From contig JBDTOO010000004.1 in NCBI GenBank assembly GCA_039933215.1, positions 5,844 through 69,843 on the forward strand: DNA of 64,000 nucleotides. Direction: 5' to 3'. Below, one piece after another: positions 1,838 to 47,342 of this stretch (positions are counted from its first letter, which is position 1; each line of letters begins with the position of its first letter). Source of the stretch: Acidobacteriota bacterium. GTDB taxonomy: Bacteria > Acidobacteriota > Thermoanaerobaculia > UBA5066 > Gp7-AA6. The translations under genes and the position numbers were made by a program. Below the pieces are notes generated by a model, which saw only the letters and a program-made list of their open reading frames with translations, ran no database searches and was not told the origin of the DNA.

Positions 1838-2037
1838 TAGCAGCCCGTGGAAAAATGGATGCGGGTGTCGCGTTCGGTCTTTTGCAATCGGCGAGAGGCC
1901 TCGACGGGATTCTCGTTCTGGAGGTGGGAGGAGTCATTTCTCCGCGTAACGCCGAGCAAAAGCCCGTCCGCCCTGCGGGTTGCGGCGGCGCGGGGCTCTC
2001 AACGCCATCCCACACCCTTTTTCCACGGGCTGCTAGT
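1838..2037. repeat. perfect 19-bp inverted repeat (ctagcagcccgtggaaaaa / tttttccacgggctgctag) flanking about 160 bp between convergent genes
   Basis: Arms read directly from the sequence at 1838-1856 and 2019-2037. Confidence 0.6.
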
Positions 2038-2575
2038 CGTCTTCGACGGCGGAGGAACGGAGGAAGTCCGCGAGGTCCCACGAACCGCCCGCGAACTGCA
2101 GGGTGAGCTGTCCGCGCTCGAAGATGGTCCGCTCGAGCGAGAAGTCCACGCCGGGCGGCATCCAGTCGTTCAGGTTCACGACCATGATCCGGTCCTCGGG
2201 GTAGTAGGTCAGGAGCCCCGGCGGAGCCTTCTGCACGAGGTAGTGGAGAAGGTGGTCCGGGATCGGGATGAAGGACAGCGCCTGCACCTTGTCGAGGACG
2301 AAGGCCAGAAATCCGTCCTTCAGACGAATCTGCGAAAGTGTCGCCTTCGCCGAGAGCGCCACGCCGAAGCGGTGCACGACGACCGTCGCCGCGAGCTCGC
2401 CCGGTGTCACGGCGATGCGCAGATCGTGGAGGTCCGGGATCCGATCGACGAGCCGCTGGACCAGAGCGTTCAGGGTTCGCTCATCGAAAATCAGAGAGAG
2501 GCCGCTCCACCGAATCCGGTACCCCGGTTCGGCGGGAGGCGGCGGAAGGGCCTCCGCCGTCGCGAGCTTTTCCAT
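2033..2575 (-). CDS. hypothetical protein (180 aa)
   Basis: Complete ORF with balanced, non-low-complexity composition. Located upstream of the ubiA-containing operon. Confidence 0.4.
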   Translation of the reverse strand: MEKLATAEALPPPPAEPGYRIRWSGLSLIFDERTLNALVQRLVDRIPDLHDLRIAVTPGELAATVVVHRFGVALSAKATLSQIRLKDGFLAFVLDKVQALSFIPIPDHLLHYLVQKAPPGLLTYYPEDRIMVVNLNDWMPPGVDFSLERTIFERGQLTLQFAGGSWDLADFLRSSAVEDD

Positions 2576-2631
2576 GTCCCTCTATTGTAACGCCGTTGGA
2601 CGATTCTTGAGAGATCCGCGGCTCCGCGCGG

Positions 2632-8065: not shown

Positions 8066-10429
8066 TCAAGGCCCGAAGATGCGATCCACGGACTGGTGGA
8101 TGTCGAACAGCGTTCCGATGTCCTTCAGGTTGACCACGATCCGGAGGTCCCGGCGGGGAGACGGAGGAAGACGCAGCTGCCGGAGCTCGACGAACACCGT
8201 GAAACACGAGCCTCGGTAGGTGACGAGCGAACGGTCCTCGAGCAGGAGCTTCTGGCGGGCGTCGTAGTTCAGCTGCGTCTCGACGCGGAACGCCTTCGAG
8301 AGATCGGCGCCCGCGGAGACGCGAAACTGGTCGGAACCGGGAGAGGGGCTTCCCGGGGGAAGCGGTGCGGCGAGGATGGGTCGGCTCGCGAACCAGGTCG
8401 CGTTCACGAACGACAGCTTGTGGCTCCAGGACGCGGAGAGCGAGGTGCCGGTCACCTGCGAGGCCTCGGTGTCGTAGGACAGTCTCCCGTCCAGGTGAAA
8501 GCCGGCGTCGGGGACGAGCCGCAGCGTCGCCTCCACGGGTCCCTTCTTCGACACCGTGGTCTGAAACGTCGTCGCGCTCGAGAGCAGGTTCTGCGGCAGC
8601 GTGAACGCCCGGGTCTGCCCGATCTCGAGGGAGGCGATCTCCACCGCGCCGCCCGCCTTCGGGTCGGCCGGCCGCGCGAGGAGCCGGTTGACGAGCGCGT
8701 ATCGCACCTGGTTCTGCCCGAGCTGGAGGTCCACCTCGTCGTACTCGGGAATGCGCTCCGGGTCGGCGACGTCGGAGACGTAGGAGTACTCGACCCGGGG
8801 CTCGATGATGTGCTTGAACTTCGCGAACGGGCCGATCGCCGCGTCGTAGATGCGCGAGAACGATGGCCCGACGATGGAGAGGCCGGCCTCGCCGTATTCG
8901 CGGCTGAGGGAATGCCCCGTGAAGACCGTCTGCGCGGAATCCGTCGAGTCCGTGTACTCCGTGAAGCGGCCTCCCACTTTCGCCGTTGCCGAGAGCCAGG
9001 GGATCCGCTTCCAGGGTAGCGAGAGAACCGGATGGACGTCGGCACGCGCGTAGTCGCCTCGCGGGAGGTTCGGACCGCGATCCATGTAGAGCCAGGAGAG
9101 TGAGGACTCCGCCGAGAAGAACAGGGGCGTGTTTCCGACGGGCGACGTGCGGCGGGAGTACTCGAGGCTCGGCAGACGCTCCTGCGTCACACGCGTTCCG
9201 AAGAACGTCTCGCTTCGCTCGAACCGAAGGTTGATCGAGTCGTCGCCGAAGTTCTTCGTCAGGAACGCCCGGGACAGGATCTGGCGCGCGGACGTCAGCG
9301 CGAACGACCGCTCGAAATCCTGAAGGTACTGGTCGTCGGAGTAGTCGCGGATCGCCACGACGCCTCGGAAGCCGAACGGCAGGTCGTCCGCGACGTGATC
9401 GAGACGGACTTTCCAGCGTGTGAGGGTCTTCCGGACGAAGATGCCCGGCCCACCGTTCGGGAGCGTGCAGGCGCCCTCCCCGCCGACGGGGTTGTCGAAG
9501 ATCGACACGCAGACCGTCGCGTCGGTGTCGCGGACCACGTACCCCTGAAACACGCCGGCGGACTCGGGGGTCGGCGTCCAGCGGAGCTCCTCGCCGAGCC
9601 CGATGGTTCCCCGCGAGTAGAGGTCGAGATTCGAGGTCAGGTCCGTCGACCGCCCGCTGACCCAGTAGTGCGTCAGGCCGACGTAGGCCCCTCGCCCGGA
9701 GCTGAAGCCGAGACCAGGCACGAGGAAGCCCGTCGCGCGGTCTTCCTTGGTCGGCCACACCAGATAGGGCGAGTAGAGAAGGGGCAGCGAACGCGCGCGG
9801 AAGGAGACGTTCTTCATCCGCGCGTAGTCGTCGAGCGTCACGACCGCCTCGGACATGCGGAAGGACCAGTCCGGCTTCGGCACGTCGCAGGCGGTGAAGA
9901 CCCCATCGCGGATGCGGTAGGTCGCCTCGCCGATCTTCTCGATCGATTTGGCGATGACGTGGTACGTGGGCGCGAGATCGGCCGTCGCGTTGTCGATCGT
10001 CCCGGTCTTCGCCTCGAGCGAGAATGTCGCGTGGTCTCCCGCGAGGCGCGTCGGCCCCTGGTCGATGACGACGTGGCCATCGAGCGTCGCCGTCTTCGTC
10101 GGGAAGTCGTAGTGCGCGGCGTCGGCGCGGATTTTGACGTCCTGGTACTCGATCAGGACCTCGTCCGACCCGTCCCATGAAACGTCCTTCTCGTAGCGCA
10201 CGGGCTTCTTCGTGTAGAGCCGGACTTCGTCTCCCTTCTGGGGGACGCGGAAGCGGATCTGGAAATTCGGCTTGGCCTTGAACTGACCCTCGAAGGGATC
10301 CGAAGCGCCGAACGGATCCTGGGCGGATGCGAGAGCGCCCGCGAGCCATGCGGCGGCCGCGAAGAGGACCGCCCGGCAAAGAAAGGCCTCGGGCGTCCGG
10401 CCGCGGGCGAGCCCGGCGGGACGCTTCAC
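8066..10429 (-). CDS. lptD: LPS-assembly outer-membrane protein LptD (OstA family)
   Basis: 787 aa with a signal peptide, an OstA-like N-terminal domain and a large beta-barrel. Overall resemblance to LptD. Confidence 0.75.
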
Positions 10430-11085
10430 GCGTCCATGGTTCGGACCTGCGGGGCCGCGCGGAACGCCGCTTCGGTACGAGCTCGGACCTCCCCTTCCGT
10501 CGTCTCCGGGGCGAGCTCCACCAGCACGAGCTCGCCCCGCTCGGGGTCGACGTCGAAGACGCAGAGGTCCGTGATGATCCGCTGGACGCAGCGGACACCG
10601 GTCAGCGGGAGCGTGCAGCGACGCAGGATCTTGGGCTCGCCCGCGCGGGACGTGTGCTCCATCGTGACGACGAGGCGGCGGGCGCCCGCGACGAGGTCCA
10701 TGGCGCCGCCCATTCCCTTCACCATCTTCCCCGGGATCATGTAGTTCGCGATCGAGCCTTCCTGGTCCACCTGCATCGCACCCAGGATGGACAGATCGAC
10801 GTGACCTCCCCGGATCATCGCGAAGGATTCCGCCGATGAGAAGTACGAAGCTCCCGGCCGCACCGTCACGGTCTCCTTGCCGGCGTTGATCAGGTCGGGG
10901 TCGATCTCGCGCTCGGTCGGGTACGGACCGAGGCCCAGGATCCCGTTCTCAGACTGGAGGATCACCTCGATCCCCTCCGGAATGTGGTTCGCGATCAGGG
11001 TCGGCATACCGATGCCGAGGTTGACCGTGTAGCCGTCTTTCAGCTCGCGGACGGCGCGCCGGATGATCCCCTCGCGGTCGAGCAT
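10426..11085 (-). CDS. scoB: 3-oxoacid CoA-transferase subunit B
   Basis: Motif SENG with the catalytic Glu ([11 protein letters not shown]). 219 aa. ATGA overlap with subunit A. Confidence 0.85.
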
Positions 11086-11780
11086 CAGCCCTTCCTGACC
11101 GTGCGCCGCTCGATGCGCTTCTCGCGCGGCGCCACGACCACCCGGTTCACGAAGACGCCGGGCGTGTGGACGCTCTCGGGGTCGAGCTCTCCGACCTCGA
11201 CGAGCTCCTCGACCTCCACGATGGAGACCTTTCCGGCCGTCGCGGCCATGGGATTGAAGTTCCGCGCCGCCTTGCGGTAGACGAGGTTGCCGAGGCGGTC
11301 CCCCTTCCACGCGGCGACGAGCGAGAAGTCGCCGACGATCCCCCGTTCGAGGAGGTACTCGCGTCCGTCGATCTCGCGCGTCTCCTTCCCCTCGGCGACC
11401 AGCGTTCCGACGCCCGTCGGCGTGAAAAACGCGGGAATTCCCGCGCCGCCGGCCCGCATGCGTTCCGCCAGCGTGCCCTGGGGGACGAGCTCGACCTCGA
11501 GCTCTTTCGTCAGGAACTGCCGCTCGAACTCGGCGTTTTCGCCGACGTACGACGAGACCATCTTGCGGATCTGCCGCGTCGCGAGGAGGCGCCCGAGTCC
11601 CCAGTCATCCACGCCGCAGTTGTTCGAAACGACGGTCAGGGCCCGCACGCCGCGACGCACCAGGGCCTCGATGAGATTCTCGGGGATCCCGCAGAGGCCG
11701 AACCCGCCGACGACGAGCGTCGCGCCTTCGAACACGTCCGCCACGGCGGCGTCGGCGCTGGCGACGACCTTGTCGATCAT
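11085..11780 (-). CDS. scoA: 3-oxoacid CoA-transferase subunit A
   Basis: [13 protein letters not shown] motif. 231 aa. Confidence 0.85.
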
Positions 11781-11810
11781 CCTCGGATCATAAGGCGGGA
11801 GCGAGGATCT

Positions 11811-12977
11811 TCAGGCGGGCGAAGCCACGGCGAGAAACTCGACGGCGTCGAGATCGGAGGACGCGCCCGGGAACCGGGCGAGCGCCGCCAGCCGCGCCGC
11901 TCCTTGCGGCGACGGCGGCGAAAGGACCGCGTCGATCGCTCGGACGCGGTAGCCGCACGCCTCGAAGAGGTCCCGCAGCGTCTGCCGCGTGAAGAATCGG
12001 ACATGGGTGCCGGAGAGAATGGAGTAGGGCACGTACTCGAAGCGGCCCTCGATGAGGTCGGCGATCACCGACCAGTGCCCGACGTTCGGCACCGAAGCGA
12101 CCACGACGCCCGACGCCGAGAGCCAGGGACGGACCCGCGCGAGCGCCGCCGCCGGGTCCTCCAGATGCTCGAGGACGTCGCCGAACAGCACCGCGTCGAA
12201 GCGGCCCGGAAACTCGTCGCGGATCGCCTCGAGGGGCTCGCGCAGCACGCGGTCGTAGACCCCCGCCGCCTGCTCCGCGTCGCCCGGGTCCGGCTCTATG
12301 CCGAAAATCTCCGCGACCCCGGCCTGGCGCAGCGCCGGCCCCGTCGCGCCGCGCGAGCACCCGACGTCGAGCACGGAGCGCGCTCCCGCGGGTACGCGGG
12401 CGGCGAGATCCTCCCGCGCCTGGCCGTCCATCTCGCCGTAGCGGTGGAGGTAAGCCCCGGGATCGACCGCCACGGACCGTCCCGCCCGGGACGCTTCCGC
12501 GACGACCTCGTCGAGAAACGTCCCGGGAGGCATCGACGCGACCGCCGCGCGCCGCGCCGCGAACACCGGCGACCGAGCGGCGACGCCGGCCCGCAGCGCC
12601 CCGCCGCGCGCGGCCACGGCCGCGGCGGCTTCTTCGAGGAGCGCTGGAGTCTGGTACGCGAAGGGCGGATCGCCGCGCGTCTCGACGCTCCCCGGCTCGT
12701 TCGAGACGGGAACGACCACGTCGGCGCCCCCCGCTTCGACCGCCGCGAGGAGGCGCCTGGCGGCCAGGGGAGCGAGATAGGCCTCCGGGTCCGCGTGAAC
12801 GAGGACGATCGGACTCTCGCCCTCGAGGTCTCCGACCGTCGGCCGCACGCGCGGGCGTTCGACGAATCGCCGCGCCGGGAGGCGCCGCGCCCACCTCCGC
12901 GCAAGCCGCCACGCCCACGCCGACTCGGCCTCGAAACGCGGGATCCCTCCGATCAGGAGGTCGAAGGGGGTCGGCAC
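11811..12977 (-). CDS. class I SAM-dependent methyltransferase with an N-terminal extra domain; start approximate (GTG at 12977)
   Basis: C-terminal half has VLDVGCSRG ... DAVLFGDVLEHLEDP (Methyltransf_11/23-like). The N-terminal roughly 200 aa is a separate domain. The ORF-track start overlaps the thiolase and was rejected. Confidence 0.55.
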   Translation of the reverse strand: MPTPFDLLIGGIPRFEAESAWAWRLARRWARRLPARRFVERPRVRPTVGDLEGESPIVLVHADPEAYLAPLAARRLLAAVEAGGADVVVPVSNEPGSVETRGDPPFAYQTPALLEEAAAAVAARGGALRAGVAARSPVFAARRAAVASMPPGTFLDEVVAEASRAGRSVAVDPGAYLHRYGEMDGQAREDLAARVPAGARSVLDVGCSRGATGPALRQAGVAEIFGIEPDPGDAEQAAGVYDRVLREPLEAIRDEFPGRFDAVLFGDVLEHLEDPAAALARVRPWLSASGVVVASVPNVGHWSVIADLIEGRFEYVPYSILSGTHVRFFTRQTLRDLFEACGYRVRAIDAVLSPPSPQGAARLAALARFPGASSDLDAVEFLAVASPA

Positions 12978-13014
12978 GAAAGGCGTCGCCGCGGCGGCCC
13001 CGGAGGGCGCGGGA

Positions 13015-14196
13015 CTACGCGACCTCGACCAGCATCGCGGTCGCTTCTCCGCCTCCGATGCAGATCGCCGCGATACCGCGCTTCTTTCCGTCGCGGCGCA
13101 GCGCATGGACGAGCGTGGTCAGGAGACGGGCGCCGGAAGCGCCAATCGGGTGGCCGAGCGCCACGGCTCCGCCGCGGACGTTCACGCGCGCCGGATCGAG
13201 GTCGAGCTCGCGGATCGACGCCATCGCGACGGCCGCGAAGGCCTCGTTGATCTCGAAGAGGTCGATGTCGCCGGTCTTCAGCCCCGTCTTCGAGAGGAGC
13301 TTCTGAACGGCGCCGATCGGAGCCGTCGTGAACCACTCCGGCGCCTGAGCGACCCCCGCCCACCCGAGGATCCGCGCGATCGGCTTCGCGCCGAGCTCGC
13401 GCGCTTTCTCCTCCGACGCGAGGACGAGCGCGGCGGCACCGTCGTTGATCTTGGAGGAATTGGCCGCCGTGACGGTCCCGCCCTCCTTCTGGAACGCCGG
13501 CTTCAATCCCGCCATCTTGTCGAGCGGCGCCGCGAAGGGCTCCTCGTCCGTGTCCACGATGGCCGGCGCGCCCTTCTTCTGGGGGACCTCCACGGGAACG
13601 ATCTCGTCGGCGAACAGCCCGTTCTTCGAGGCTTCCTGCGCGCGCCGGTAGGACTCGAGCGAGAACGCGTCCTGCTCCTCGCGGGTGAAGTGGTATTTCG
13701 CCACGCACATCTCCGCGCAGTTGCCCATGTGGACGTCCTTGTACGGATCCCAGAGGCCGTCCTTGATCATCGAGTCGACGAGCACGCCGTTGCCCATCCG
13801 GTACCCGGTCCGCGCGCGCTCCAGGAGATAGGGGGCGTTCGACATCGACTCCATGCCGCCCGCGATCGCGATGTCGTACTCGCCGGCGATGATCGCGTTG
13901 CCGACGTCCATGGCGGCCCGCATGCCCGAGCCGCACACCTTGTGCACGGTGACGCACGGAACCGTATCGGGGATTCCGGCGCCGAGAGAGGCCTGCCGTG
14001 CCGGCGCCTGGCCCTGGCCGGCCTGCAGGACGTTGCCGAGGACGACCGATTCGATCGACCCGGGCTCGACGTGCGCCTGCTGGAGAACGCCGCGGATCGC
14101 CGCGGCGCCGAGCGCGTGCGCGGGCAGCGACGAGAGCTTGCCGAGGAAAGAGCCGACGGGCGTACGCGCCGCGCCGAGGATCCAGACGTTCTTCAT
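13015..14196 (-). CDS. acetyl-CoA C-acetyltransferase (thiolase II)
   Basis: 393 aa. Active-site Cys (VHKVCGSGM), C-terminal NVRGGAVALGHPIGASGAR and CIGGGEA motifs. Confidence 0.9.
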   Translation of the reverse strand: MKNVWILGAARTPVGSFLGKLSSLPAHALGAAAIRGVLQQAHVEPGSIESVVLGNVLQAGQGQAPARQASLGAGIPDTVPCVTVHKVCGSGMRAAMDVGNAIIAGEYDIAIAGGMESMSNAPYLLERARTGYRMGNGVLVDSMIKDGLWDPYKDVHMGNCAEMCVAKYHFTREEQDAFSLESYRRAQEASKNGLFADEIVPVEVPQKKGAPAIVDTDEEPFAAPLDKMAGLKPAFQKEGGTVTAANSSKINDGAAALVLASEEKARELGAKPIARILGWAGVAQAPEWFTTAPIGAVQKLLSKTGLKTGDIDLFEINEAFAAVAMASIRELDLDPARVNVRGGAVALGHPIGASGARLLTTLVHALRRDGKKRGIAAICIGGGEATAMLVEVA

Positions 14197-14421: not shown

Positions 14422-14829
14422 ATGCCCCGCATCCTGGCCGTGGACTTCGGCGAGCGCCGCATCGGGCTCGCGACGTCCGACGCAAACGGGATCCTCGCGA
14501 CCCCGCGCAAGACGATCGGTCGCAAGGGCGACGAGGCGGCGATCGCCGAGATCCTCGCCTTCTCGGCCGCCGAGGAGATTGCGACGATCCTCCTCGGGAT
14601 CCCCCGCTCCCCCGACGGCGTGGAGAGTCCCTTCGGAGCCCGGATTCGCTCGTTTGCCGCGAAGCTCGCCCGCGCCGCGCATGTCCCCGTCGTCTTCCAC
14701 GAAGAGACTCTCACGTCCGACGAGGCCGCTCGGCGCGTGCCGCCCGGCGCTCCGCGCGAGGCCATCGACCGCACGGCGGCGGCGGTCCTCCTCGAGGACT
14801 ACCTTCTGCACGAGCAGCGACGGTCATGA
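14422..14829 (+). CDS. ruvX: Holliday-junction resolvase-like RuvX/YqgF
   Basis: MPRILAVDFGERRIGLA N-terminus. 135 aa. Confidence 0.85.
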   Translation: MPRILAVDFGERRIGLATSDANGILATPRKTIGRKGDEAAIAEILAFSAAEEIATILLGIPRSPDGVESPFGARIRSFAAKLARAAHVPVVFHEETLTSDEAARRVPPGAPREAIDRTAAAVLLEDYLLHEQRRS

Positions 14830-15932
14830 CCGCGAAACGCCGGTTCCTTCGCGTCGTCCTCGTCCTGGCGCTCGTGAGCGTGGCCGGAGCGGGATTCCTC
14901 TTCTACCGGCTCGAGCATCCGCGCCGGCCGGGAAGCGCGCAGCAACAGGCGAAGATCGCCTTCCCGACTGGAACCCCGACGGCGCGCATCTTTCAGACGC
15001 TGGAGAAGGAGGGCGTGGTCGCGGACGCGCGACTGGCGGAGATCTACTATCGCGTCTACCGCGCCAGCACGCCGCTCCAGGCGGGCGAGTATCTCTTCGA
15101 CCGGCCGATGCCGATCGACGAGATCATCAACCGGATGGCGAAGGGCGACGTCGTGAAATACAGCGTCGTCGTGCCCGAGGGGCTCACCGCCGACGAGACG
15201 TTCGAGCTCTTCTGGAGCAAGGGGCTCGGCGGTCCGGAGGCCTTCAAGAAGGCCCTCGTCGATACGGAGCTCCTGCCGGGCCTGACGAACGGCGTGAGCG
15301 ACCTCGAGGGATTCCTGTTTCCCAACACCTACGTCGTGACGCGGTCGACGTCCGCACGGCAGATCGTGGACCGCATGGTGGGAGAGTTTCGGAAAAATTT
15401 CACGCCGGAGATGCGGGAGAAAGCGCACGCGCTCGGGTTCACTCCCCGGCAGGCCGTGATCCTGGCCTCGATCATCGAGAAGGAGACGGCGCTCAAGCAG
15501 GAGGGGCCGCTCATCGCCGCGGTCTACAGCAACCGCCTCAGAAAAGGGATGCGTCTCCAGGCTGATCCCACCGTGATGTATGCGCTGAAGCGCGACGGCA
15601 AGTGGCAGGGGATGCTCCATCGCTCCGACTACGGATACGACTCCCCGTACAACACCTACATGAACGAAGGCCTCCCTCCCGGCCCGATCTGCAACCCCGG
15701 CCTCGCCGCCCTGAAGGCGGCGCTGTCTCCGGCGCGGACGGACTTTCTCTACTTCGTCGCCGATACGACCGGCGGCCACACCTTCACGAGGACGTACGAG
15801 GAGCACCTCCAGGCGATCGCCACCTCGCGCCGCCTCCGGGCCGCCGCGGGGGAGTCGCTCCGGGAAGAGCCGGACGCCGCGCCGCCCGCGCCCGCGACGC
15901 CCGCCGCCTCCTCCCCCGCGCCCCTGCCTTGA
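14826..15932 (+). CDS. mltG: endolytic murein transglycosylase MltG (YceG-like)
   Basis: N-terminal TM helix and a YceG-like domain (FPNTY ... EKETA ... ADPTVMYAL). ATGA overlap with ruvX. Confidence 0.85.
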   Translation: MTAKRRFLRVVLVLALVSVAGAGFLFYRLEHPRRPGSAQQQAKIAFPTGTPTARIFQTLEKEGVVADARLAEIYYRVYRASTPLQAGEYLFDRPMPIDEIINRMAKGDVVKYSVVVPEGLTADETFELFWSKGLGGPEAFKKALVDTELLPGLTNGVSDLEGFLFPNTYVVTRSTSARQIVDRMVGEFRKNFTPEMREKAHALGFTPRQAVILASIIEKETALKQEGPLIAAVYSNRLRKGMRLQADPTVMYALKRDGKWQGMLHRSDYGYDSPYNTYMNEGLPPGPICNPGLAALKAALSPARTDFLYFVADTTGGHTFTRTYEEHLQAIATSRRLRAAAGESLREEPDAAPPAPATPAASSPAPLP

Positions 15933-16009
15933 CCCCCGGCCGCACCGGCCCCACAATCGATCATCCACACAGCGACGTCCATCTCCCCCGCGGTCGGCCC
16001 CTCGCGGCC

Positions 16010-17863
16010 ATGACCGACTCTCTGCCGCGGCCCTTCGGCTCGCACCTCCTCACGGCCGAGCTCGGGGAGGATGCCCTCGGCCGTACGTACCGGGCCATCC
16101 GGACGACCGGGGAGCGGGAGTTCGTCCGGTTGAGGATCTTCGAGGGCCCCGACATCTCCGAGGACGCCGTCCTCGACGCGATCGAGGAGAACGGGGAAGT
16201 CCACAACTTCCTGAAGAACCCCGCCATCGCGCGGGGCGTCACGCTCGATTCCGTCGACGGGACACCGTTTCTCGCGTGGAACGAGGAGAGCGGCCGCACG
16301 CTCGACGCCCTGATCGCGCGCGCCCGGCTGCAGCAGCAGACGGTGCCTTACGAGCACGCCCTCCTGATCACCGAGAAGGTCGCGACCGCGCTCGACCATG
16401 CGTACAACACGACGATCGACGGGGACCGCACGCTGCACGGACTGGTGTGGCCGGGGTTCGTTTCGATCTCGGACGACGGCGAGACGCGGCTGACGGGATT
16501 CGGCCTCGCCGCGGGCTTTCTTCCGTCGCTCGGCCGGCCGCGCTTCGCGCGGGAGATCTCGCCGTATCTCGCTCCCGAGGAACGCGAAGAGAACCGCATC
16601 GGGAAGAACTCCGACGTCTACTCACTCGGTGCGATCCTCTTCGAGCTCCTGATCGGCCGCCTTCCGGACGCGGCCGAGCCGATGAGGGACCTTCGGATCG
16701 CCCAGCGGGACGGAGCCCCTATCGCTCCCGACGTCGCCGCCGTCCTCCGTCTCTGCCTCGCGCCGCCCGCGGGCCGCTACCAGTCGAGCGGCGAGGTCCG
16801 GCGCGAGCTCGGCAAGCTCCTCTTCTCGGGGCCGTACGCGCCGTCGACGTTCAACCTGGCGTTCTTCTTGAACGGCCTCTTCTCCGCCGAGATCGAAGCG
16901 GAAACGAACGCGCGCCTGCGCGAGGCCGGCCTCGAGATGTCCGGCGGGGCCGCTCCCCGACCGGGCGCCGCACCGCCGCCGGCGCCCCGCTTCCCCGCGC
17001 CGCCTCCGCGCCCGCCGGCTCCGCGCGCGCTGGTCCCGCCTCCCGGGCCGTCGCACCGGCCCGCTCCCCCGGGAGCCCCGCCCGCGGTCCCGGAACCGCC
17101 GGAGCGGAGCCGCAATCCCTTCGTCTTCGGAGGCATCCTCCTCATCCTCGCCGCCGCGGCCGGCACCGCGTGGGTCTACCTCCGGCGGACGCCCCCGGCC
17201 CCGGCGCCCTTGCTCGCGACGCCGCTGCCGGTCGTCCCGACTGAGACGCCCTCGCCCGCCGTCGTCATCGGCCCAACGACGAAGATGTCGGACGCCGAGT
17301 TCAAGGACGAAGTGGCGCGGCGGGTCGCGGTGGAGATGAAGAAGATGGAGCTCGCAATGCGGCGCGCTTCGCCCTCTCCGACGCCGGTCGAGATCCCCCG
17401 GGGACGCGGGAACGGCGCCGGGCTCGCCGGCCGGGCGGAGACGCCAGCGACGCCGCTTCTGGCTCCGGCCGCGGTGACGGCCACCAGCCTCGCGGAGCCG
17501 GCGCCGAAGGGCGTCGAGGAGCCCCCGCGGGAGGAGCCCCCGCCGCCTCCGACCGCGGCGCCCGCGCCGCCGGAGTCCGTTCCCGCGTCGAATGAGATCG
17601 ACGTGGCGCCGAAGATCGCAACGGTCGTCAAGCCGTCCTATCCGCCGGTCGCGCTGCGCGCGCACATCGGCGGGGTCGTGCTCCTTCGCGTCCTCGTCTC
17701 GGAGGCCGGGGTCCCCGTCGAGATCCAGGTCATCAAGGGAGCCCCGGGAGGGCTGACCGAGAGCGCGGTCGCGGCCGTCAAGGGCTGGCGCTTCGTTCCG
17801 GCCAGCCGGGCCGGCGCGCCGGTGCCGGCGTGGACGATGGTGCCGATCCCTTTCGAGCCCTAG
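16010..17863 (+). CDS. fusion protein: cytoplasmic protein-kinase-like (pseudokinase) domain, Pro-rich linker, single TM helix, periplasmic TonB C-terminal domain
   Basis: N-terminal region has a kinase fold signature (SPYLAPEE, SDVYSLGAILFELL). It lacks the VAIK Lys (FVRLRIF), the HRD catalytic Asp (HGLVWPGFV) and DFG (GFG instead). TM helix is FVFGGILLILAAAAGTAWVYL. The C-terminus (VVKPSYPPVALRAHIGGVVLLRVLVSEAGVPVEIQV ... GWRF) is a canonical TonB_C domain. Confidence 0.6.
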   Translation: MTDSLPRPFGSHLLTAELGEDALGRTYRAIRTTGEREFVRLRIFEGPDISEDAVLDAIEENGEVHNFLKNPAIARGVTLDSVDGTPFLAWNEESGRTLDALIARARLQQQTVPYEHALLITEKVATALDHAYNTTIDGDRTLHGLVWPGFVSISDDGETRLTGFGLAAGFLPSLGRPRFAREISPYLAPEEREENRIGKNSDVYSLGAILFELLIGRLPDAAEPMRDLRIAQRDGAPIAPDVAAVLRLCLAPPAGRYQSSGEVRRELGKLLFSGPYAPSTFNLAFFLNGLFSAEIEAETNARLREAGLEMSGGAAPRPGAAPPPAPRFPAPPPRPPAPRALVPPPGPSHRPAPPGAPPAVPEPPERSRNPFVFGGILLILAAAAGTAWVYLRRTPPAPAPLLATPLPVVPTETPSPAVVIGPTTKMSDAEFKDEVARRVAVEMKKMELAMRRASPSPTPVEIPRGRGNGAGLAGRAETPATPLLAPAAVTATSLAEPAPKGVEEPPREEPPPPPTAAPAPPESVPASNEIDVAPKIATVVKPSYPPVALRAHIGGVVLLRVLVSEAGVPVEIQVIKGAPGGLTESAVAAVKGWRFVPASRAGAPVPAWTMVPIPFEP

Positions 17864-17888: not shown

Positions 17889-19037
17889 CTACCTCGCCGC
17901 GTAGCTGATCGTCTTGGTCTTCGGGAAGAGCGTCCGCAGGAAGTCTTCCATGACCTTGTCGTCGATCCAGGTGATCTCGGTTCCGTCGATGAAGTACGTG
18001 GGCGTCGAGTAGACACCGAGCCGGTACCCCTCCTCGATCTCGCGCCGCACCCGGGAGAAGCTTCCCTCCTGAAGGTAGCAGGCGAGGAAATCCGCGGCGC
18101 TGACGCCCTCGGCTTCCCCGGTGGTCACGGCGATCTCGTCGATGCCCGATACCGTCATGCTTTCCTGCCGCGCGTAGACGGCCGATTTGAACCGGAACAT
18201 CGCGGGCGCCCCGGCCGCCTGGAAGATGCAGTCGGCCGCGGAGGCCGCCTTCATCGCCCAGACGTGTCCGAGCCAGAGAGGGAAGAACTTGTAGTGGCGG
18301 CGCACGTTGACGATGCCGGCGTTCGCCTCGAGCAGCCGGTCCATCTGCAGCCCGCGCATCTTGCAGTATCCGCATTCCATATCGGCGAACTCCACGACGT
18401 TGATCGTCGCGTCGGGCTTGCCGGTCGTCCGGTTGGCGGACAGGTCGATGCGGCGGCGGCGTTCCTCCCGCGGGTCGGAGCGGAAGTCCCAGAAAGGACC
18501 CTGGAGGTACGCCTTGCCGTCGGCGGACACGTAGCCCGGCATGTGCACGACGCCGTACCCCGTCTCGACGGCGACGCCCACGGCCTTGTAGGGCGGCGCG
18601 TCGCGCTCGGGGACCAGCCCCACGCGCACGCTCGTCTTGAAGAGCGTTGCGAACTTTTCCTGCACCCAGCCGAGGTCGGACGCGGATCGGATCGGACGCC
18701 CCGACGCGTTCGTCACCGAGTCGCCCGGGAAGAACCAGTGGCCGTCGTCGGAGACGTAGTAGAGCTTGTCGACGTTCAGCTTCTCGTAGCGGCCCTTCCG
18801 GCGGATCTTCCAGCCCTGCATCCCCGGCAGCCGCTCGGTCCCCTTTTCGGCGGTCACCCGGGAGTCGGGATCCCAGGGGAGGAACTTCCCCGCGTAGGCG
18901 GAGACGTCGGCGGCCGTCACGGGAGACGACGCCGCGGCGGGGGCCTGGGCTGCGGATGCCTTCCGGGCGGGAGGCGACGCCGCGAGACCCGTCAGGGCGG
19001 TTGCGGCCAGGAGCACGACGGCGGTCTTTCTGGGCAT
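17889..19037 (-). CDS. secreted thioredoxin-fold (DsbA-like) protein with an N-terminal extra domain
   Basis: Signal peptide. CGYC redox motif inside a DsbA/Thioredoxin_4-like C-terminal domain. ATG at 19037. Confidence 0.6.
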   Translation of the reverse strand: MPRKTAVVLLAATALTGLAASPPARKASAAQAPAAASSPVTAADVSAYAGKFLPWDPDSRVTAEKGTERLPGMQGWKIRRKGRYEKLNVDKLYYVSDDGHWFFPGDSVTNASGRPIRSASDLGWVQEKFATLFKTSVRVGLVPERDAPPYKAVGVAVETGYGVVHMPGYVSADGKAYLQGPFWDFRSDPREERRRRIDLSANRTTGKPDATINVVEFADMECGYCKMRGLQMDRLLEANAGIVNVRRHYKFFPLWLGHVWAMKAASAADCIFQAAGAPAMFRFKSAVYARQESMTVSGIDEIAVTTGEAEGVSAADFLACYLQEGSFSRVRREIEEGYRLGVYSTPTYFIDGTEITWIDDKVMEDFLRTLFPKTKTISYAAR

Positions 19038-19205: not shown

Positions 19206-20321
19206 ATGAAGGCTTCCGATCGCTTCCGCCCCGCCGCACTCGTGCTTTCGGCCGCACTGCTCGGACTTCTCGGGGGTGTCCCCGCCGCGCGAGGCTCCGC
19301 GGAGTCGCCCACCCTGAGCGAGCTGTTCCAGAAAGCCAAGACCGAGTTCCGCATCGCTTCGTACAAGTCGTCCCTCGACACGTTCGCCGTCCTCGAGAAG
19401 GCGAGCCTCGAGCCCGGAAACGAGGCGTCGCGGGAGAAGCTCGCGCCCATCATTTCGTTCTACCGCGCGGCCAACCTCGCGGCGCTCGGCCGCGCCGAAG
19501 AGGCGAAAAAGGAGTTCGAGAGCTACCTCGAGAGCTCGCCGAACACCCGCCTCGATCCGGGCACCTTCCCGCGCCCTGTCCTCGAAGCCTTCCAGCGCGC
19601 CAAGGAATCCGTGGCGCTGCGCAACCCGAAGACGGAGGAGTCCGCAGGGCGCCCCGACGAGAGCGGCATCGAGGCCGCCTATCGGAAGTTCCGCCCGGAC
19701 CCGTCCCTCGCGCCGATCGGTGTCGAGCCCGGCTCCGAGGCGGCGCTCCGCTTCATCATGACTTCCCGGGAAAAAGACGCGTGGATGCGCGTGTCCGACT
19801 CCCAGGAGAAGGCGGAGTTCCTGACCCAGTTCTGGCGGCGCCGCGATCCCAGCCCGACAACTCCTGAGAACGAGTTCCGCGAGGAGATCGAGCGGCGCAT
19901 CCGATTCGCCGATTCCCGCTTCGCGCAGGAGGAGCACCGGGGCAGCGAGAGCGATCGAGGAATGGTGTTCGTGCTGATGGGGCCCCCGAGCTACATCGGA
20001 CAGAAGCCTTTCAAGACCGAGGACGATCCGCTTCAGATCGCGCGCAACGCGCCCATCCGCGAAACGACGCGCAACGCGGATGGATCGACCTCCACGATCC
20101 TCGTCCCGCGCACGGCTCTCACCGCTCAGACGCTCCAGGGGACGCGGGAGATCTGGTACTACCGGCGGGACCGCCTCCCGAAGCAGGTCCGGTTCACCGA
20201 GGTCGACTTCGAGTTCCTGACGCGCAAGGGGATCGGCACGGCGGTCCTGCAGCGCGACCACGAGATCCTGACCACGCTCGATCAGGTCGCGCGCGCCGCG
20301 CTCCCGACAAACACCGACTGA
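19206..20321 (+). CDS. secreted GWxTD-domain protein
   Basis: Signal peptide plus a C-terminal region resembling the GWxTD family that is common in Acidobacteria. Assignment is from memory and of moderate confidence. Confidence 0.45.
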   Translation: MKASDRFRPAALVLSAALLGLLGGVPAARGSAESPTLSELFQKAKTEFRIASYKSSLDTFAVLEKASLEPGNEASREKLAPIISFYRAANLAALGRAEEAKKEFESYLESSPNTRLDPGTFPRPVLEAFQRAKESVALRNPKTEESAGRPDESGIEAAYRKFRPDPSLAPIGVEPGSEAALRFIMTSREKDAWMRVSDSQEKAEFLTQFWRRRDPSPTTPENEFREEIERRIRFADSRFAQEEHRGSESDRGMVFVLMGPPSYIGQKPFKTEDDPLQIARNAPIRETTRNADGSTSTILVPRTALTAQTLQGTREIWYYRRDRLPKQVRFTEVDFEFLTRKGIGTAVLQRDHEILTTLDQVARAALPTNTD

Positions 20322-22618: not shown

Positions 22619-25558
22619 CTAGAAGCTGACCTTCCCGAAAACCCGCAGGCTGCGGCGGCCCGTGAAGGAGATCGGCCGCCCGTAGTTGGCCTGCTGCGGT
22701 CCGCCTTCCGTCAGGTCGAAGCGCTCGTCCTGCTGGAGGACCCTCTGCTGGTTCAGGACGTTGAAGACATCCGCCCCGACGTTGAACTCCGCGGGCCCCA
22801 TGGGGATCGAGTAGCCGAGGTGGAGGTCCGCGTCGTAGACGGACGGCGTGCGTCCCGCCGTTCCGCGCTGGGTCAGATAGAGCTCGTAGTTGCGGTAGTC
22901 GTTGTAGTAGCCCCGCTGGGTGAGCGGCGTGCCTGTGAAGTAGAACGCCGACAGACCCACGGTGAGCCGGAACGGGGTGATGTAGGACCCGTCGAGCTTC
23001 AGGGTGCTCCGGCGGTCGTTCGAGAGGTATCCGCGGGCGTTGTCCAGGAACACCCGGTAGTCGTACGCCGAATTGATGTTCGGGTCGAGCTGTCCGGTGG
23101 AGGTCTGGAAGACTCCGTCGTAGTTGCCCTGGAGCTTCGAGTAAACGTAGGACGCGATGAACTGGAGCGAGTTGCTGAAGCGCTTCTGGGCGGTCAGCTG
23201 GATCGCGCGGTAGTAGCGGCGCGGGGCCACGTTGACAAACTCCTGACCAACCAGCTCGCCCGTGTCGGGGCTGATGAACGTGGTGCCGGGGTTGAAGATG
23301 AAGTACTCGAGGTCGCCCGCCGCGTTCACGGCGCCGCCATCCTCGATGACCCGGCCGAGACCCCGGTAGTTCGCTTCGATGCCGACCGAGAGGTCCTGCA
23401 GCGGCTCGAACTGGACGCCGAAGCTGATGCCGTCCGAGTACTGGCCCTGAATGCCGGGCTGCGTGGGCTCACCGAAGGAACCGCCCGTCTTGATCGTGCT
23501 CTGCCGGCCGGCGGAGCAAACGCGGGACGTCGCCGTCGAGGCGCCGACCGGCGTGAAAAAAACTCCGCAAACCGAAGGATCGCCGACGTCGCTGTTCGGG
23601 TCGCGGTTGTAGACCGCCGTCGTGACTTCGAGGCCGTAGGCGCGGATGTTGATGTCCGTGGGCATCGTCTCGTAGAAGCGGGCGTAATTGCCGTACAGGC
23701 GGGACCGTCCGCCGCCCAGGAAGTCCCAGGCGAATCCGACGCGCGGCATCCACTCGTCGTTGATGTGGATCTGGGTCAGGTTGCTGATGTCCTTGACCTT
23801 CTGATCTTCCCAGCGGACACCGAGGTTCAGCGTCAGGGTCGGGAGGATCTGCCACTTGTCCTGGAAAAAGGCGCCCGTGTTGTTGGTGCGGGAGAGCGTT
23901 CCGCCCGGAGCGACGTCGACCTCGATCGGATCCCCAGCCGCGTTGCGCACGCCGCTCGAGTTGTACTCGTGCTGGTAGATCGTTCCTTCGACGAAGTTCC
24001 GAACGAAGACCGTCTCCTTCATGCCCGCCGGCCCCGTGTAGAGCCGCTTGCTGTCCGAGGAGTTCTGGGCGTAGTCGCCGCCGACCTTGAACTCGTGCGA
24101 TCCGAAGAAATTGACGAAGGCGCTCGCGTTCGCCTTGAAGTAGTTGCGCTGGAAGGTCTGGGACTGGTGGAAGCCGTAGCCGCCCTGGTTCGGAATGCCC
24201 GAGGGCACGACGGTCGTGAAGAGGCGAAGATCCTCGGCCGCCGGCGCGAAGACGTTCTTCTCGTTGTGTCGGGCACCCTGCAATTCAAAGAGGAAGGCCG
24301 ATCCCACGACGCCCGACAGGCGGCCCGTGTAGTCCGTGCCACCCTGCTTGCGCACGCCCTGGTAGGTCCCCGGATCGGCGCCGGCCAGCGGGGTGACCAG
24401 GTTGGGCCCGAGCTCATTCGGGTCGCCGAAGACCGATCCGGTCAGGGACAGCCCTTCGAGGATCCGGAACGTGAGCTTGCCGGCGTAGAGGTCCTGATTC
24501 AGGATCCGGGCGGTCGTCGCACCCGTGAGCGTGCCCGTTCCGGGGCCCGCGTTCCCGCCGATCGTGCCGTTGCCGATCGGGTTATTCAGGAAGTTGTTGC
24601 CTCCCGTGTGGACCCGGTCGTAGGCGCCGAAAAACCAGATCCGGTCCTTGACCGCGAAACCGCCGATGTCCGCGCCCCAGTCGGCCGTCAGGGTGTTTCG
24701 GATAGGGTCGGCCTGGGACCGCGCGGTGCCCAAACTGTCCGACTTCTCCTGGACGTGCTTGTCCGCCGCGGCCCAGATGTTGCCGCCCGTCGCGTCATTG
24801 CTGCGTCCCGAGTAGTAACCGAACGCGTCGCCGTGGAAGGTGTTCCCGCCCGACTTGGTGATGGCGTTCAGCACGCCGCCCTGGGCGTGGCCGTACTCCG
24901 CCTGGTAGCCGCCGACCTTGACCTCGACCTCCTGGATGAACTCGGACGGCGCGGCCTTGCCCTGCCGGCCGTACTGGACCTCGGTCGTGTCGACGCCGTC
25001 GATGATGAAGCTGTTCTCCGCACCCGTCGAGCCGTGCACGTTGAAGTTCGTGTTGTCGAGTCCGAAGCCCGCCACGACGCCGGGAGTCTTCGTCGCGATG
25101 GCCTGGAAGCCGCGGCCGATGGGCAGCGTCTTGACGAACTCCGACGTGAAGTTGGCGCCCGTCGACGAGGAGGTCGCGTCGATGACGGGGGCTTGGCTCG
25201 ACACCGTCACTTCCGCCGTTGCGCCCGAGATGGACATCGCCGCGTCGACGATGACGGTCTTGTCGAGCTGGACCGCCGCTTTCTTCTCGATCTTTCCGAA
25301 GCCCGAGAGGTTGTAGGACACCACGTACTCGCCCGGGGGAAGGAGAGAGATCCGATACTGCCCGTCTCCGCCGGTCGTCGCGGACTTGGTCCCCTGGAGA
25401 GCCTGGCTCCGGGCCTCGACCGTTACACCGGGAAGCACGCCGCCCGTGCTGTCCTTGACCTGCCCGCGGATCTCGCCCGTCGTCTGGGCGAGCAGGCCGG
25501 CGGCGGCCGAAAACAGTGCCACACAAAGGAAATAGCGAAACGAAGAACCAGACCTCAT
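22619..25558 (-). CDS. TonB-dependent outer-membrane receptor with an N-terminal carboxypeptidase-regulatory-like (CarboxypepD_reg) domain
   Basis: Signal peptide. TGEIRGQVKDSTGGVLPGVTVEA ... DGQYRISLLPPGEY domain, then a plug and a 22-strand barrel ending in C-terminal F. RBS GGAGGG upstream of the ATG at 25558. Confidence 0.8.
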   Translation of the reverse strand: MRSGSSFRYFLCVALFSAAAGLLAQTTGEIRGQVKDSTGGVLPGVTVEARSQALQGTKSATTGGDGQYRISLLPPGEYVVSYNLSGFGKIEKKAAVQLDKTVIVDAAMSISGATAEVTVSSQAPVIDATSSSTGANFTSEFVKTLPIGRGFQAIATKTPGVVAGFGLDNTNFNVHGSTGAENSFIIDGVDTTEVQYGRQGKAAPSEFIQEVEVKVGGYQAEYGHAQGGVLNAITKSGGNTFHGDAFGYYSGRSNDATGGNIWAAADKHVQEKSDSLGTARSQADPIRNTLTADWGADIGGFAVKDRIWFFGAYDRVHTGGNNFLNNPIGNGTIGGNAGPGTGTLTGATTARILNQDLYAGKLTFRILEGLSLTGSVFGDPNELGPNLVTPLAGADPGTYQGVRKQGGTDYTGRLSGVVGSAFLFELQGARHNEKNVFAPAAEDLRLFTTVVPSGIPNQGGYGFHQSQTFQRNYFKANASAFVNFFGSHEFKVGGDYAQNSSDSKRLYTGPAGMKETVFVRNFVEGTIYQHEYNSSGVRNAAGDPIEVDVAPGGTLSRTNNTGAFFQDKWQILPTLTLNLGVRWEDQKVKDISNLTQIHINDEWMPRVGFAWDFLGGGRSRLYGNYARFYETMPTDINIRAYGLEVTTAVYNRDPNSDVGDPSVCGVFFTPVGASTATSRVCSAGRQSTIKTGGSFGEPTQPGIQGQYSDGISFGVQFEPLQDLSVGIEANYRGLGRVIEDGGAVNAAGDLEYFIFNPGTTFISPDTGELVGQEFVNVAPRRYYRAIQLTAQKRFSNSLQFIASYVYSKLQGNYDGVFQTSTGQLDPNINSAYDYRVFLDNARGYLSNDRRSTLKLDGSYITPFRLTVGLSAFYFTGTPLTQRGYYNDYRNYELYLTQRGTAGRTPSVYDADLHLGYSIPMGPAEFNVGADVFNVLNQQRVLQQDERFDLTEGGPQQANYGRPISFTGRRSLRVFGKVSF

Positions 25559-25761
25559 GAGCCCTCCTCTTGGGTTATTGAAGGGTGCTTTTGCCACACG
25601 TTGGACTCCAATTTCCCACATGTAGAGCAATGTCACTGCCAATATGCGACCATTCGCCACAACATGGTATGTCTATGAGCCACAAGGACATGGCATCGTC
25701 GAGAGGCGCGACGTTAGGCCGCCGAAACTATAAATTTGAAGGAAAATCCAACCGTTTGGAT

Positions 25762-32841: not shown

Positions 32842-33840
32842 CTACTGCGGCGGAGGCGGTGGCGGAGGCGTCGGCTGCGGAGGCTTCGGCCGCAGCCCGA
32901 GCGGATCGTACGCGTCGGGGGGTCGGGGCGTCGTTCCGGGAGGCGGCGGGGGCGCGGCCTCTTCCGGAATCGGCGGCGAGGAGGGAGGGCCCGGCTCGGC
33001 CGACGAAGGGGCGGGCGCGGGAGACGCCGGCGCGGGAACGATGTAGGCCGGGCCGAGGTCCTGCGGGCGGATCTCGCGCGGTCCGGGCGCGATCGGGACG
33101 GGCCCGGTCGCCGGACGCGGCTCGCTCGCCCGGCTGCGGTCCACGGGCTCCGGAGCCGTCGGATCGGCGACCTCGTCGCTCCAGACCGGGCGGTCGACGG
33201 GAGCCCGCCGGTAGGAAGCGAGCGCGGGATCCGCGAACACCCCCTGCGCGGAGAGCGAGGCGCGGGCCATGTCCTTCTCGTAGTTGACGAGCGAGACCCG
33301 CGCGAGAAGCTGCGTGTCCGCGACCAGAGGGTTTCGGCGCACGTCCCGCATCGACGGGTCGATCTGGAGTGCGCGGGCGTATTGCTCGATCGCGTCGCTC
33401 ATCCGCCCCCGCTTCTCGTAGAGCCGGCCGAGGCGGAAACGCGCGGCCGGAAAGCCGCGGTTCCGATCAACCGACCGCTCGTAGGCGCGGATCGCGCGCC
33501 CCGTCTGCCCCTCCGTCTCGGCGAGGAGGCCGAGATTGTAGGGAGCGAGAGAGCTCTTCGGATCGAGCTTCATCGCGATCTCATACTGTTCGCGCGCCTC
33601 CCTGGGGAAGCGCCGCGCGGCGAGGAGATTTCCGAAGTCGTTGTGAAGGGCCGGCGAGCCCGGATCGGCCTCGACCTTCTTCTCCTGCTCGAGAATGCGA
33701 TCGTCGAGCGGATTGCCCGGCGCGAGGAACCGGCGGTAGAACGGCTCCTCGGGAGCCTTGTCCTTGCGCTCGGCGGCACCGGCCGCCGGGGAGATCGTCG
33801 CCGCCGCGATCCACAGGAGAGCCGTCGCGAGTCTCTTCAT
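32842..33840 (-). CDS. secreted TPR-repeat protein with a Pro-rich C-terminal tail
   Basis: Signal peptide. Several TPR-like helix pairs. The C-terminal roughly 90 aa is a P/A/S-rich low-complexity tract. Confidence 0.6.
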   Translation of the reverse strand: MKRLATALLWIAAATISPAAGAAERKDKAPEEPFYRRFLAPGNPLDDRILEQEKKVEADPGSPALHNDFGNLLAARRFPREAREQYEIAMKLDPKSSLAPYNLGLLAETEGQTGRAIRAYERSVDRNRGFPAARFRLGRLYEKRGRMSDAIEQYARALQIDPSMRDVRRNPLVADTQLLARVSLVNYEKDMARASLSAQGVFADPALASYRRAPVDRPVWSDEVADPTAPEPVDRSRASEPRPATGPVPIAPGPREIRPQDLGPAYIVPAPASPAPAPSSAEPGPPSSPPIPEEAAPPPPPGTTPRPPDAYDPLGLRPKPPQPTPPPPPPPQ

Positions 33841-33862
33841 GGTTTCTCCGCCCCTTCGGGCA

Positions 33863-34459: not shown

Positions 34460-34582
34460 GGACCTATAGTACCGGGCGTGCGGCCGTCGGGTGGCGATCG
34501 AAGCGGACCAAACGGGAGCCCGGGGGCGCCGGAACCGGTTCTGGCCGGCGCGGCCGCCTCGCCCCGGCGCGTGCCGCCGTCG

Positions 34583-36182: not shown

Positions 36183-37550
<1,368 letters not shown>

Positions 37551-37640
37551 GGGAGGGTTCCCTACAGGGTACGGCGTCGGCGGGAGAACGCAAGGGCCGC
37601 CCTTTCGGACGGCCCTTCGGAACTCGAGCGGCGACGCGGC

Positions 37641-44670: not shown

Positions 44671-44683
44671 GGGTTTCCCGAGG

Positions 44684-47216: not shown

Positions 47217-47309
47217 CGAGTGGTCCAAGAGCGATTCCCGTGCCCGGGTGGCCGCCGGGAGGCATCTCATTGAAAAACAATGGCTTAACTTCAGCCATGG
47301 CCGGGGGCC

Positions 47310-47325
47310 TGGCATCCTCAGTGCC
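47310..47325 (+). promoter_or_regulatory. candidate sigma-54 (-24/-12) promoter TGGCAT-N6-TGC upstream of the HEAT::pilT gene
   Basis: GG and GC elements are spaced exactly as in the TGGCAC-N5-TTGC consensus. One mismatch at the -14 position. Confidence 0.3.
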
Positions 47326-47342
47326 GAATTTCGTTTCCAAAA

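Follow-up and report, generated by a model that had tools for sequence, protein, structure and literature searches.

What does a kinase fold do at the cytoplasmic end of a protein whose periplasmic end looks like TonB? The question is raised by one gene in a 64,000-nucleotide stretch of contig JBDTOO010000004.1 from an Acidobacteriota bacterium (assembly GCA_039933215.1; the whole stretch is called the window below), which encodes a bitopic protein joining a pseudokinase to a TonB C-terminal domain (TonB_C), and in which an earlier note on this DNA had seen a possible signal-coupled variant of TonB. A TonB_C domain is usually read as a sign of nutrient uptake; here it forms the periplasmic end of a conserved family of apparently dead kinases that has a peptidoglycan-enzyme gene, mltG, as its steady neighbour. 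The reading that we favour, and hold only tentatively, is that the protein serves as an adaptor or signalling scaffold across the envelope, has no enzymatic role and works in connection with MltG and peptidoglycan processing.

The open reading frame (ORF) is unbroken from its ATG at 16010 to its stop at 17861-17863 (617 codons; Table 1), and its product is 100% identical to an NCBI protein from a metagenome-assembled genome (MAG), P0001, entered as 'TonB family protein [Acidobacteriota bacterium]'. A longer alternative frame from a GTG at 15602 overlaps mltG and is unsupported as the start, because the homologues all begin M-x-x-E-x-LPRxFG; a frameshift or gene-fusion artefact was rejected on the strength of hundreds of full-length, collinear homologues and the identical database entry. 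Two Pfam domains, and only two, were recognised in the product: Pkinase (PF00069) at residues 17-221, with 33.5 bits against a cut-off of 31.7, and TonB_C (PF03544) at residues 541-616, with 55.5 bits against a cut-off of 24.6. The second domain was also matched by the NCBIfam model tonB_Cterm (TIGR01352; 39.4 bits against a cut-off of 27.1), while the other NCBIfam similarities, all to kinases, were generic and fell far under their cut-offs. In an AlphaFold2 (AF2) model built from an alignment of 88 sequences, the C-terminal domain (residues 535-617) is compact, with a predicted local distance difference test score (pLDDT) above 93; it matches the TonB and TonB2 structures in the PDB, and the family profile matches E. 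coli TonB at E = 3e-9. The model and a hydropathy scan agree on a sole hydrophobic helix, which is the transmembrane (TM) helix of Table 1. The linker before this helix is 41% Pro and poorly conserved in the alignment, with a pLDDT mostly of 44-62 that falls below 50 at residues 339-368. The tether beyond it, of about 145 residues, is 26-30% Pro and disordered around one helix, with a pLDDT below 50 in the rest, and residues F431, E434, V435, R438 and E442 of that helix are conserved in the family alignments. The likely topology is N-in/C-out, since the protein has no signal peptide, kinase folds are cytoplasmic and TonB_C domains are periplasmic.

Since the Pkinase score is marginal, the fold was checked independently. 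The pLDDT exceeds 90 across most of residues 1-306, a Foldseek search of the PDB returned the Mycobacterium tuberculosis PknA, PknI and PknB kinase domains as the best matches (template-modelling score on the target 0.71-0.79, E ~1e-13), and the family profile matched PknA at E = 2e-16. A chance match to Pkinase, at 1.8 bits over the cut-off, was rejected because the structure prediction, the fold search and the profile search of the PDB agree. Profile alignment to PknA then placed Arg42 (16133-16135) at the position of the beta3 Lys of VAIK, H143-G144-L145 (HGL, 16436-16444) at that of HRD, Trp147 at that of the HRDxK Lys, Phe150 at that of the Mg-binding Asn, and G163-F164-G165 (GFG, 16496-16504) at that of DFG. 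The Gly-rich loop GxGxxG reads G19-E-D21-A-L-G24, in which the second Gly is an invariant Asp that would be expected to clash with the nucleotide phosphates. Retained in the protein are APE (188-190), the subdomain IX Asp202 and the subdomain XI Arg256.

These substitutions are shared across the family. Residues R40, H143, G144, G163, F164, G165 and E190 do not vary among 88 close relatives, and the wider pattern was counted in 115 full-length representatives at 50% identity (116 at each position). At beta3, 87 of 116 have Arg and 3 have Lys, and at the DFG Asp 108 have Gly, while the HRD Asp has given way to Phe, Leu, Ala or another residue in all representatives except one (P0261, described below). 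By contrast, H143 is kept in 115, G144 in 114 and the Pro of APE in all 116, and conservation across the family falls on residues that build the C-lobe core (the HRD His, APE Glu, Asp202 and Arg256). Judged by its residues, the domain is a catalytically dead pseudokinase whose family has lost the VAIK Lys, the HRD Asp and the DFG Asp. Because the substitutions are shared while the C-lobe core is kept, the alignments indicate that the catalytic loss is old and maintained and that the core is under selection. Conservation along the protein is moreover highest in the pseudokinase (62-77% identity, whereas the linkers cannot be aligned), whose activation segment holds no conserved Ser or Thr. Assignment to anti-phage defence kinases (PD-T4-6 and other PADLOC models) was rejected, given that the similarity is one of generic fold (up to 73 bits; 54 bits for MADS6 against a cut-off of 460), the catalytic residues are gone and the neighbourhood is a conserved housekeeping one.

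The most conserved motif of the family is none of the former catalytic motifs; it is the stretch LLFSGPYAPSTFNLAFFLNGLF directly C-terminal to the kinase core. Over residues 270-286 the family-wide pattern is L-L-x-x-G-x-Y-x-P-(T/S)-T-F-N-L-A-F-(F/Y), and the motif is invariant or near-invariant in the sets A1, A2 and A3. The AF2 model covers the motif region with helices at 280-290 and 292-306 (pLDDT ~96). Possible roles for this segment are those of an amphipathic helix facing the membrane, of an interface, or of a phosphorylation site at S279/T280.

The protein is no one-off, since the same architecture and the same dead-site substitutions are found in more than 700 clusters at 50% identity. 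A profile search of 1.84 billion representatives returned 729 such clusters with E <= 1e-30; the best 150 all have E < 1e-62, and most of these are 600-750 residues long and match the profile end to end. Over 860 homologues were scored, and nearly all carry both PF00069 and PF03544. A scan with one genome per species found the family in 140 species-level genomes, all of them Acidobacteriota MAGs labelled Thermoanaerobaculia, Acidobacteriota or 'Holophagales', and a second protein search from distant representatives returned only Thermoanaerobaculia or Acidobacteriota names, always under 'TonB family protein'. The restriction to Acidobacteriota holds for the sources that carry names, and all members come from uncultured genomes. 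In distant relatives, at 30-35% identity, the pseudo-active-site and the STFNLAF motif are retained, and the Pro-rich periplasmic spacer has given way to a helical one rich in Ala, Glu, Lys and Arg that recalls TolA domain II.

Two divergent members are informative. P0261 (866 residues; L170:251-2851) joins a REC domain to a kinase whose motifs are intact (FAIK, HRD, DFG), followed by a TM helix and TonB_C, and it is the sole keeper of the catalytic triad among the 115 representatives. It shows that TonB_C can be the periplasmic module of a signalling kinase and that the kinase-TM-TonB_C layout exists in a catalytically competent form; its gene is followed by accD and then by a Mur-ligase/FolC-like gene. 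In an organism of 36-38% GC (locus L087:1543-5603; JALWYX010000060.1, GCA_027078415.1), two tandem pseudokinase-TonB_C genes encoding 699 and 651 residues stand directly after ruvX-mltG and belong to different subgroups of the family, so that they may form a heterodimeric pair. The group-C relatives were rejected as paralogues because they occupy the same ruvX-mltG slot, which makes them orthologues in other lineages, and no second paralogue was found within the window.

These data bear out much of what the earlier note had described from the letters of the sequence. Its kinase-like fold, Pro-rich linker, single TM helix and genuine TonB_C were confirmed in every structural detail, as was the loss of the catalytic Lys, the HRD Asp and DFG, by the PknA alignment and by conservation across the family. 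The computational checks it had proposed gave Pkinase and TonB_C above cut-off in domain searches, a confident kinase fold in structure prediction, and a large family whose named sources are all Acidobacteriota. Of the two things that it had said would count against it, a missing N-terminal kinase fold and a frameshift splitting two genes, neither applies.

The gene is the third of a ruvX-mltG-X cluster on one strand, in which the ruvX stop overlaps the mltG start and a gap of 77 nt separates mltG from our gene; the earlier note had overlooked this cluster. Of 84 close loci compared by tblastn, essentially all that extend far enough upstream have ruvX and mltG directly before the gene on the same strand, and every annotated close locus shows the order ruvX-mltG-X. 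Among 62 diverse metagenome loci, whose proteins are ~30-35% identical to ours, mltG is upstream in 53, of which 46 also have ruvX. The adjacency persists where the outer flanks differ (L088 and L089) and in the low-GC organism with the tandem genes (L087), and mltG is the most conserved neighbour of the family. The loci that have no mltG show varied upstream genes with no common theme; one of them (L086) has a LysM protein and BamD.

Further out, a thiolase gene diverges upstream and a DsbA-like gene converges downstream. The upstream genes at 8066..10948 (-) and 11085..14196 (-) encode LptD, a coenzyme A (CoA)-transferase subunit, an S-adenosylmethionine methyltransferase and the thiolase. 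LptD and the thiolase are present in 5 of 5 long close or group-C loci tabulated with Pfam, the CoA-transferase and the methyltransferase in some of them, and this long-range synteny calls for caution against over-reading gene order. The downstream gene (17889..19037, -) encodes a DsbA/thioredoxin-like protein of 382 residues with a long N-terminal extension; it converges on our gene both in the close clade and in a Thermoanaerobaculia clade at 30% identity, and was not detected in the diverse metagenome loci. A GWxTD-domain protein is encoded next to it (19206..20321, +).

We infer a docking partner, a direction of signalling and a functional link to MltG along the following lines. TonB_C would dock by beta-strand addition on a short peptide belonging to a partner in the outer membrane or the periplasm, or on the murein layer. 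Docking, perhaps together with dimerisation via helix 426-453, would be relayed across the membrane to the pseudokinase, which would work through binding cytoplasmic partners and not through phosphorylation. The process served would be glycan-strand processing by MltG together with envelope growth, and not nutrient import powered by ExbBD. Because the family nearly always adjoins mltG, a role in cell-envelope coordination is more likely than one in nutrient uptake. A bolder version, which we regard as rather unlikely, would make the family the core of trans-envelope control in Acidobacteriota, with a dead cytoplasmic kinase that a TonB_C 'hand', gripping a partner in the outer membrane or associated with murein, would connect to the glycan-strand terminase MltG; this would be the diderm counterpart of the PASTA-kinase/MltG axis of Firmicutes and would signal by conformation or scaffolding with no ExbBD-type motor. 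If the link to mltG is true, the family would offer a handle on how the cytoplasm, the wall and the outer membrane are coordinated in an abundant, poorly studied phylum of soils and sediments.

Several points weigh against this scaffold reading. About 9 of the 62 diverse loci (~15%) have no mltG upstream, and the close clade also keeps the thiolase, DsbA-like and phosphodiesterase neighbours. A shared gene order may reflect inheritance and not selection, and ruvX-mltG is itself a widespread pair. By its sequence, the MltG encoded here has a cytoplasmic stub of only ~6 residues, so that any contact with it would have to lie in the membrane or the periplasm and not with the pseudokinase. A weak promoter-like site in the 77-nt gap after mltG (Table 1), where one site stands against 0.1 expected in shuffled sequence, allows independent transcription; no terminator-like site was found after mltG, and both co-transcription with mltG and independent transcription would be possible. 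The TonB_C domain keeps the YP motif of real TonBs, so that binding to receptor TonB boxes is possible.

That last motif leads to a reading that extends the idea of the earlier note: the protein would work as a TonB paralogue, draw its energy from ExbB/ExbD or TolQ/TolR and pull on receptors such as the one encoded at 22619..25660, while the pseudokinase reports on or gates the process; we consider this improbable. The protein does have the genuine TonB_C domain with its P-x-Y-P motif and a Pro-rich, periplasm-spanning spacer resembling TonB domain II. Known transducers of the TonB/TolA type have, in addition to the spacer, an N-terminal TM helix with an SHLS motif that binds the ExbB/TolQ motor (PMC12204202, PMC10907165) and, just past that helix, a strand known as the D-box or motor box (PMC10907165). 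In our family, a hydropathy scan with a motif count found His or SxxxH in the TM helix of 0 of 350 members. The helix is poorly conserved and is positioned after a cytoplasmic region of 370 residues, not at the N-terminus, and what follows it shows neither a strand in the AF2 model nor a conserved Pro-flanked alternating hydrophobic pattern, the D-box motif itself being loose. No MotA_ExbB or ExbD domains (exbBD, tolQR) were found in the 32 scanned ORFs of the window or in 11 Pfam-annotated homologous loci. The receptor-like gene lies 4.8 kb downstream on the opposite strand with three unrelated genes between (DsbA-like, GWxTD, and phosphodiesterase-TPR), and a homologue of it was detected in 10 of 84 related loci, a lower bound given the short flanks, and never adjacent, so that a functional link to it was rejected as unsupported, mltG being the conserved neighbour. 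Because its TM helix is late and poorly conserved and has no SHLS or His motif, we do not file the protein as a force transducer of the TonB/TolA type, and regard it as one that uses a TonB-type docking domain; the annotation 'TonB family protein' hides proteins that probably do not transduce motor force. Of the earlier note's proposal, the fusion stands, as does the existence of a receptor-like ORF about 5 kb away, and a relay or scaffold is still the most reasonable class of function, whereas an ExbB/ExbD-type TonB and a conserved partnership with the receptor are not supported.

The remaining explanations part from a mltG-linked scaffold at other points. The pseudokinase could serve an active Hanks kinase as its docking site, its allosteric activator or its substrate for phosphorylation, and so feed a Ser/Thr phosphorylation pathway; this overlaps with the scaffold reading, and taken by itself we think it somewhat unlikely. 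It finds support in the shared TM and TonB_C layout of the intact-kinase relative P0261, and in one locus with no mltG upstream (L132:1939-3219), where by eye the ORF before the homologue opens with a Ser/Thr-kinase-like N-terminus (MDAERWQRV...LLAAD), which we take to be typical of Acidobacteria and Myxococcota kinases and which may mark an active partner. The residues S279 and T280 of the top-conserved motif are candidate phospho-sites, but AF2 places the motif with high confidence in a hydrophobic helix, so that its role may well be structural; conserved Ser or Thr residues are missing from the activation segment, and in the loci compared an active kinase, an FHA protein or a phosphatase was never a conserved neighbour. 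A precedent is the M. tuberculosis pseudokinase protein MviN with PknB and FhaA (PMC12599244). The linkage to mltG could also be incidental, the protein being a generic membrane tether or a TolA-like strut with a folded plug as its cytoplasmic domain and a role outside peptidoglycan. The loci that have no mltG, the equally kept synteny of the thiolase, DsbA-like and phosphodiesterase genes in the close clade, and the TolA-like Ala/Glu/Lys helical spacers of distant relatives would fit this account, which nevertheless seems doubtful to us, since the mltG adjacency survives changed outer flanks and a lineage of 36% GC, and the best conservation falls on the pseudokinase, which is unexpected for a mere plug. 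Very improbable, finally, is a cryptic enzyme, in which the kinase fold would have taken on a new activity by way of non-canonical residues, like SelO or SidJ. There is precedent for such folds (SidJ, 10.1101/2021.04.13.439722), and invariant polar residues do line the former active site (D21, R28, R40/R42, H143, D155 and E158); yet none of the four catalytic or metal-binding residues is retained (in their places are Arg, Leu/Phe/Ala, Phe/Leu and Gly), what stands at the old Asp and Asn positions varies among clades, unlike a new active site, and the invariant D21 of the Gly-rich loop would be expected to obstruct phosphate binding.

Table 1. Positions of the pseudokinase-TonB_C gene, its parts and associated features in the window.
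Feature	Residues	Position	Strand	Basis
Whole gene, bitopic pseudokinase-TonB_C protein	1-617 (617 aa)	16010..17863	+	ORF and translation
Cytoplasmic pseudokinase domain	1-306	16010..16927	+	Pfam, AF2, Foldseek, PknA alignment
Most conserved motif of the family, LLFSGPYAPSTFNLAFFLNGLF	270-291	16817..16882	+	Alignments, AF2
Cytoplasmic Pro-rich disordered linker	307-370	16928..17119	+	Composition, pLDDT
Single TM helix	372-392	17123..17185	+	AF2 helix; hydropathy scan
Periplasmic tether	393-535	17186..17614	+	AF2, conservation, composition
Conserved amphipathic helix in the tether	426-453	17285-17368	+	AF2 helix 428-453
Periplasmic TonB_C, motif P-x-Y-P-x-x-A	536-617	17615..17860	+	Pfam, TIGR01352, PDB matches
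ruvX (YqgF-type nuclease), first gene of the cluster		14422..14829	+	Pfam RuvX 102 bits; synteny
mltG (YceG-like lytic transglycosylase)		14826..15932	+	Pfam YceG 290 bits; synteny
Sigma-70-like promoter match TTGACC-17-CACAAT		15929..15957	+	Consensus scan, 1 site against 0.1 expected in shuffles; weak
TonB-dependent-receptor-like ORF	~1000 aa	22619..25660	-	CarboxypepD_reg (N-terminal), weak Plug, barrel (OMP_b-brl_4 / TonB_dep_Rec)

Elsewhere in the window, a type IV pilus block at 38561..47423 (-) and 47289..51067 (+) encodes a PilY1-like protein of 1866 residues and three minor-pilin-like proteins (N_methyl, PilW, GspH), and is followed by genes for two PilT/T2SSE-type ATPases, the first of which is fused, unusually, to HEAT repeats (872 residues). 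A gene for SelA, the selenocysteine synthase, at 33740..35902 (+; 405 bits) suggests that the organism probably uses selenoproteins, and a sigma-54 response-regulator activator is encoded at 36183..37640 (-). Two ORFs, at 61322..63826 (-; 834 residues) and 2033..2581 (-; 182 residues), have a coding-like GC content at third codon positions (0.91 and 0.86) and no Pfam match.

A full-text literature search found no papers linking a pseudokinase with TonB or MltG, or TonB with a kinase domain in Acidobacteria. The main texts of a bacterial Ser/Thr kinase atlas (10.1101/2025.01.12.632604) and of a pseudokinase review (PMC12599244) name the families ActPs1-3, GLW, CP1, DYD and DLHK and mention neither a TonB domain nor Acidobacteria, and the main text of a force-transducer survey (PMC12204202) mentions no kinase; the atlas family 'PTCK' carries a second domain that is left unnamed. 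Each part is familiar and two-sided designs of a similar kind have been described, while the combination, the size of the family, its family-wide dead site and its linkage to mltG appear undescribed in the main texts of these sources. The family would add a large member, absent from those same main texts, to the short list of bacterial pseudokinases.

Among known systems, TonB and TolA share with our protein a TonB_C domain that carries the YP motif, a single TM helix and a long spacer, Pro-rich here and helical in its relatives, and binding by beta-strand addition is expected in common. They differ in that the TM helix of our protein is at ~372 behind a folded domain of 306 residues, with no SHLS/His motif, no recognisable D-box, no linkage to exbBD or tolQR and mltG as its neighbour; TonB 'in general lacks a cytoplasmic domain' (PMC8262864). 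The same source describes SjdR, a TonB-like protein that acts on septal peptidoglycan and not in transport. GltJ/GltG of Myxococcus xanthus gliding motility (PMC11135422, PMC11761067) likewise combine a regulatory cytoplasmic domain, a TM helix, a Pro-rich linker and a TonB_C-like domain, and GltJ shows that proteins of the TonB type are able to link a switch in the cytoplasm with the outer envelope; its cytoplasmic part is a zinc ribbon with GYF, and it works with the AglRQS motor from a motility cluster, none of which is found at our locus.

Among pseudokinases, the GLW family has GLW in place of HRD and a poly-Leu beta3 (LLLL/W), occurs mainly in Proteobacteria and has no second domain mentioned (PMC12599244; 10.1101/2025.01.12.632604). 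Compared by description, it resembles our protein in a Gly-Leu...Trp string at the HRD site and a TM helix C-terminal to the kinase fold, and differs from it in that our clade reads HGLVW (others HGF or HGA) with V-R-L-R-I at beta3, is found in Acidobacteriota and carries TonB_C. The bitopic pseudokinases EssB/YukC of type VIIb secretion and MviN/MurJ of M. tuberculosis act as scaffolds, the latter in peptidoglycan synthesis (PMC12599244). In common with our protein, they have a membrane-anchored Hanks-type fold on the cytoplasmic side in which none of the three catalytic motifs is intact, but they have other extracytoplasmic modules and no TonB_C, belong to Gram-positive or actinobacterial hosts, and are related to it only at the level of the fold, its best PDB matches being the active kinases PknA, PknI and PknB. 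A parallel for the proposed process is offered by the membrane PASTA kinases of Firmicutes, in which MltG is a substrate of IreK and StkP (PMC12369325, PMC7011611). Like PknB, StkP and IreK, our protein has a kinase fold, one TM helix and an outer domain outside the cytoplasm, and it may share their functional connection with MltG; unlike these active, PASTA-bearing kinases of monoderms, it is predicted to be dead, carries TonB_C, and belongs to a diderm host whose MltG is nearly tail-less.

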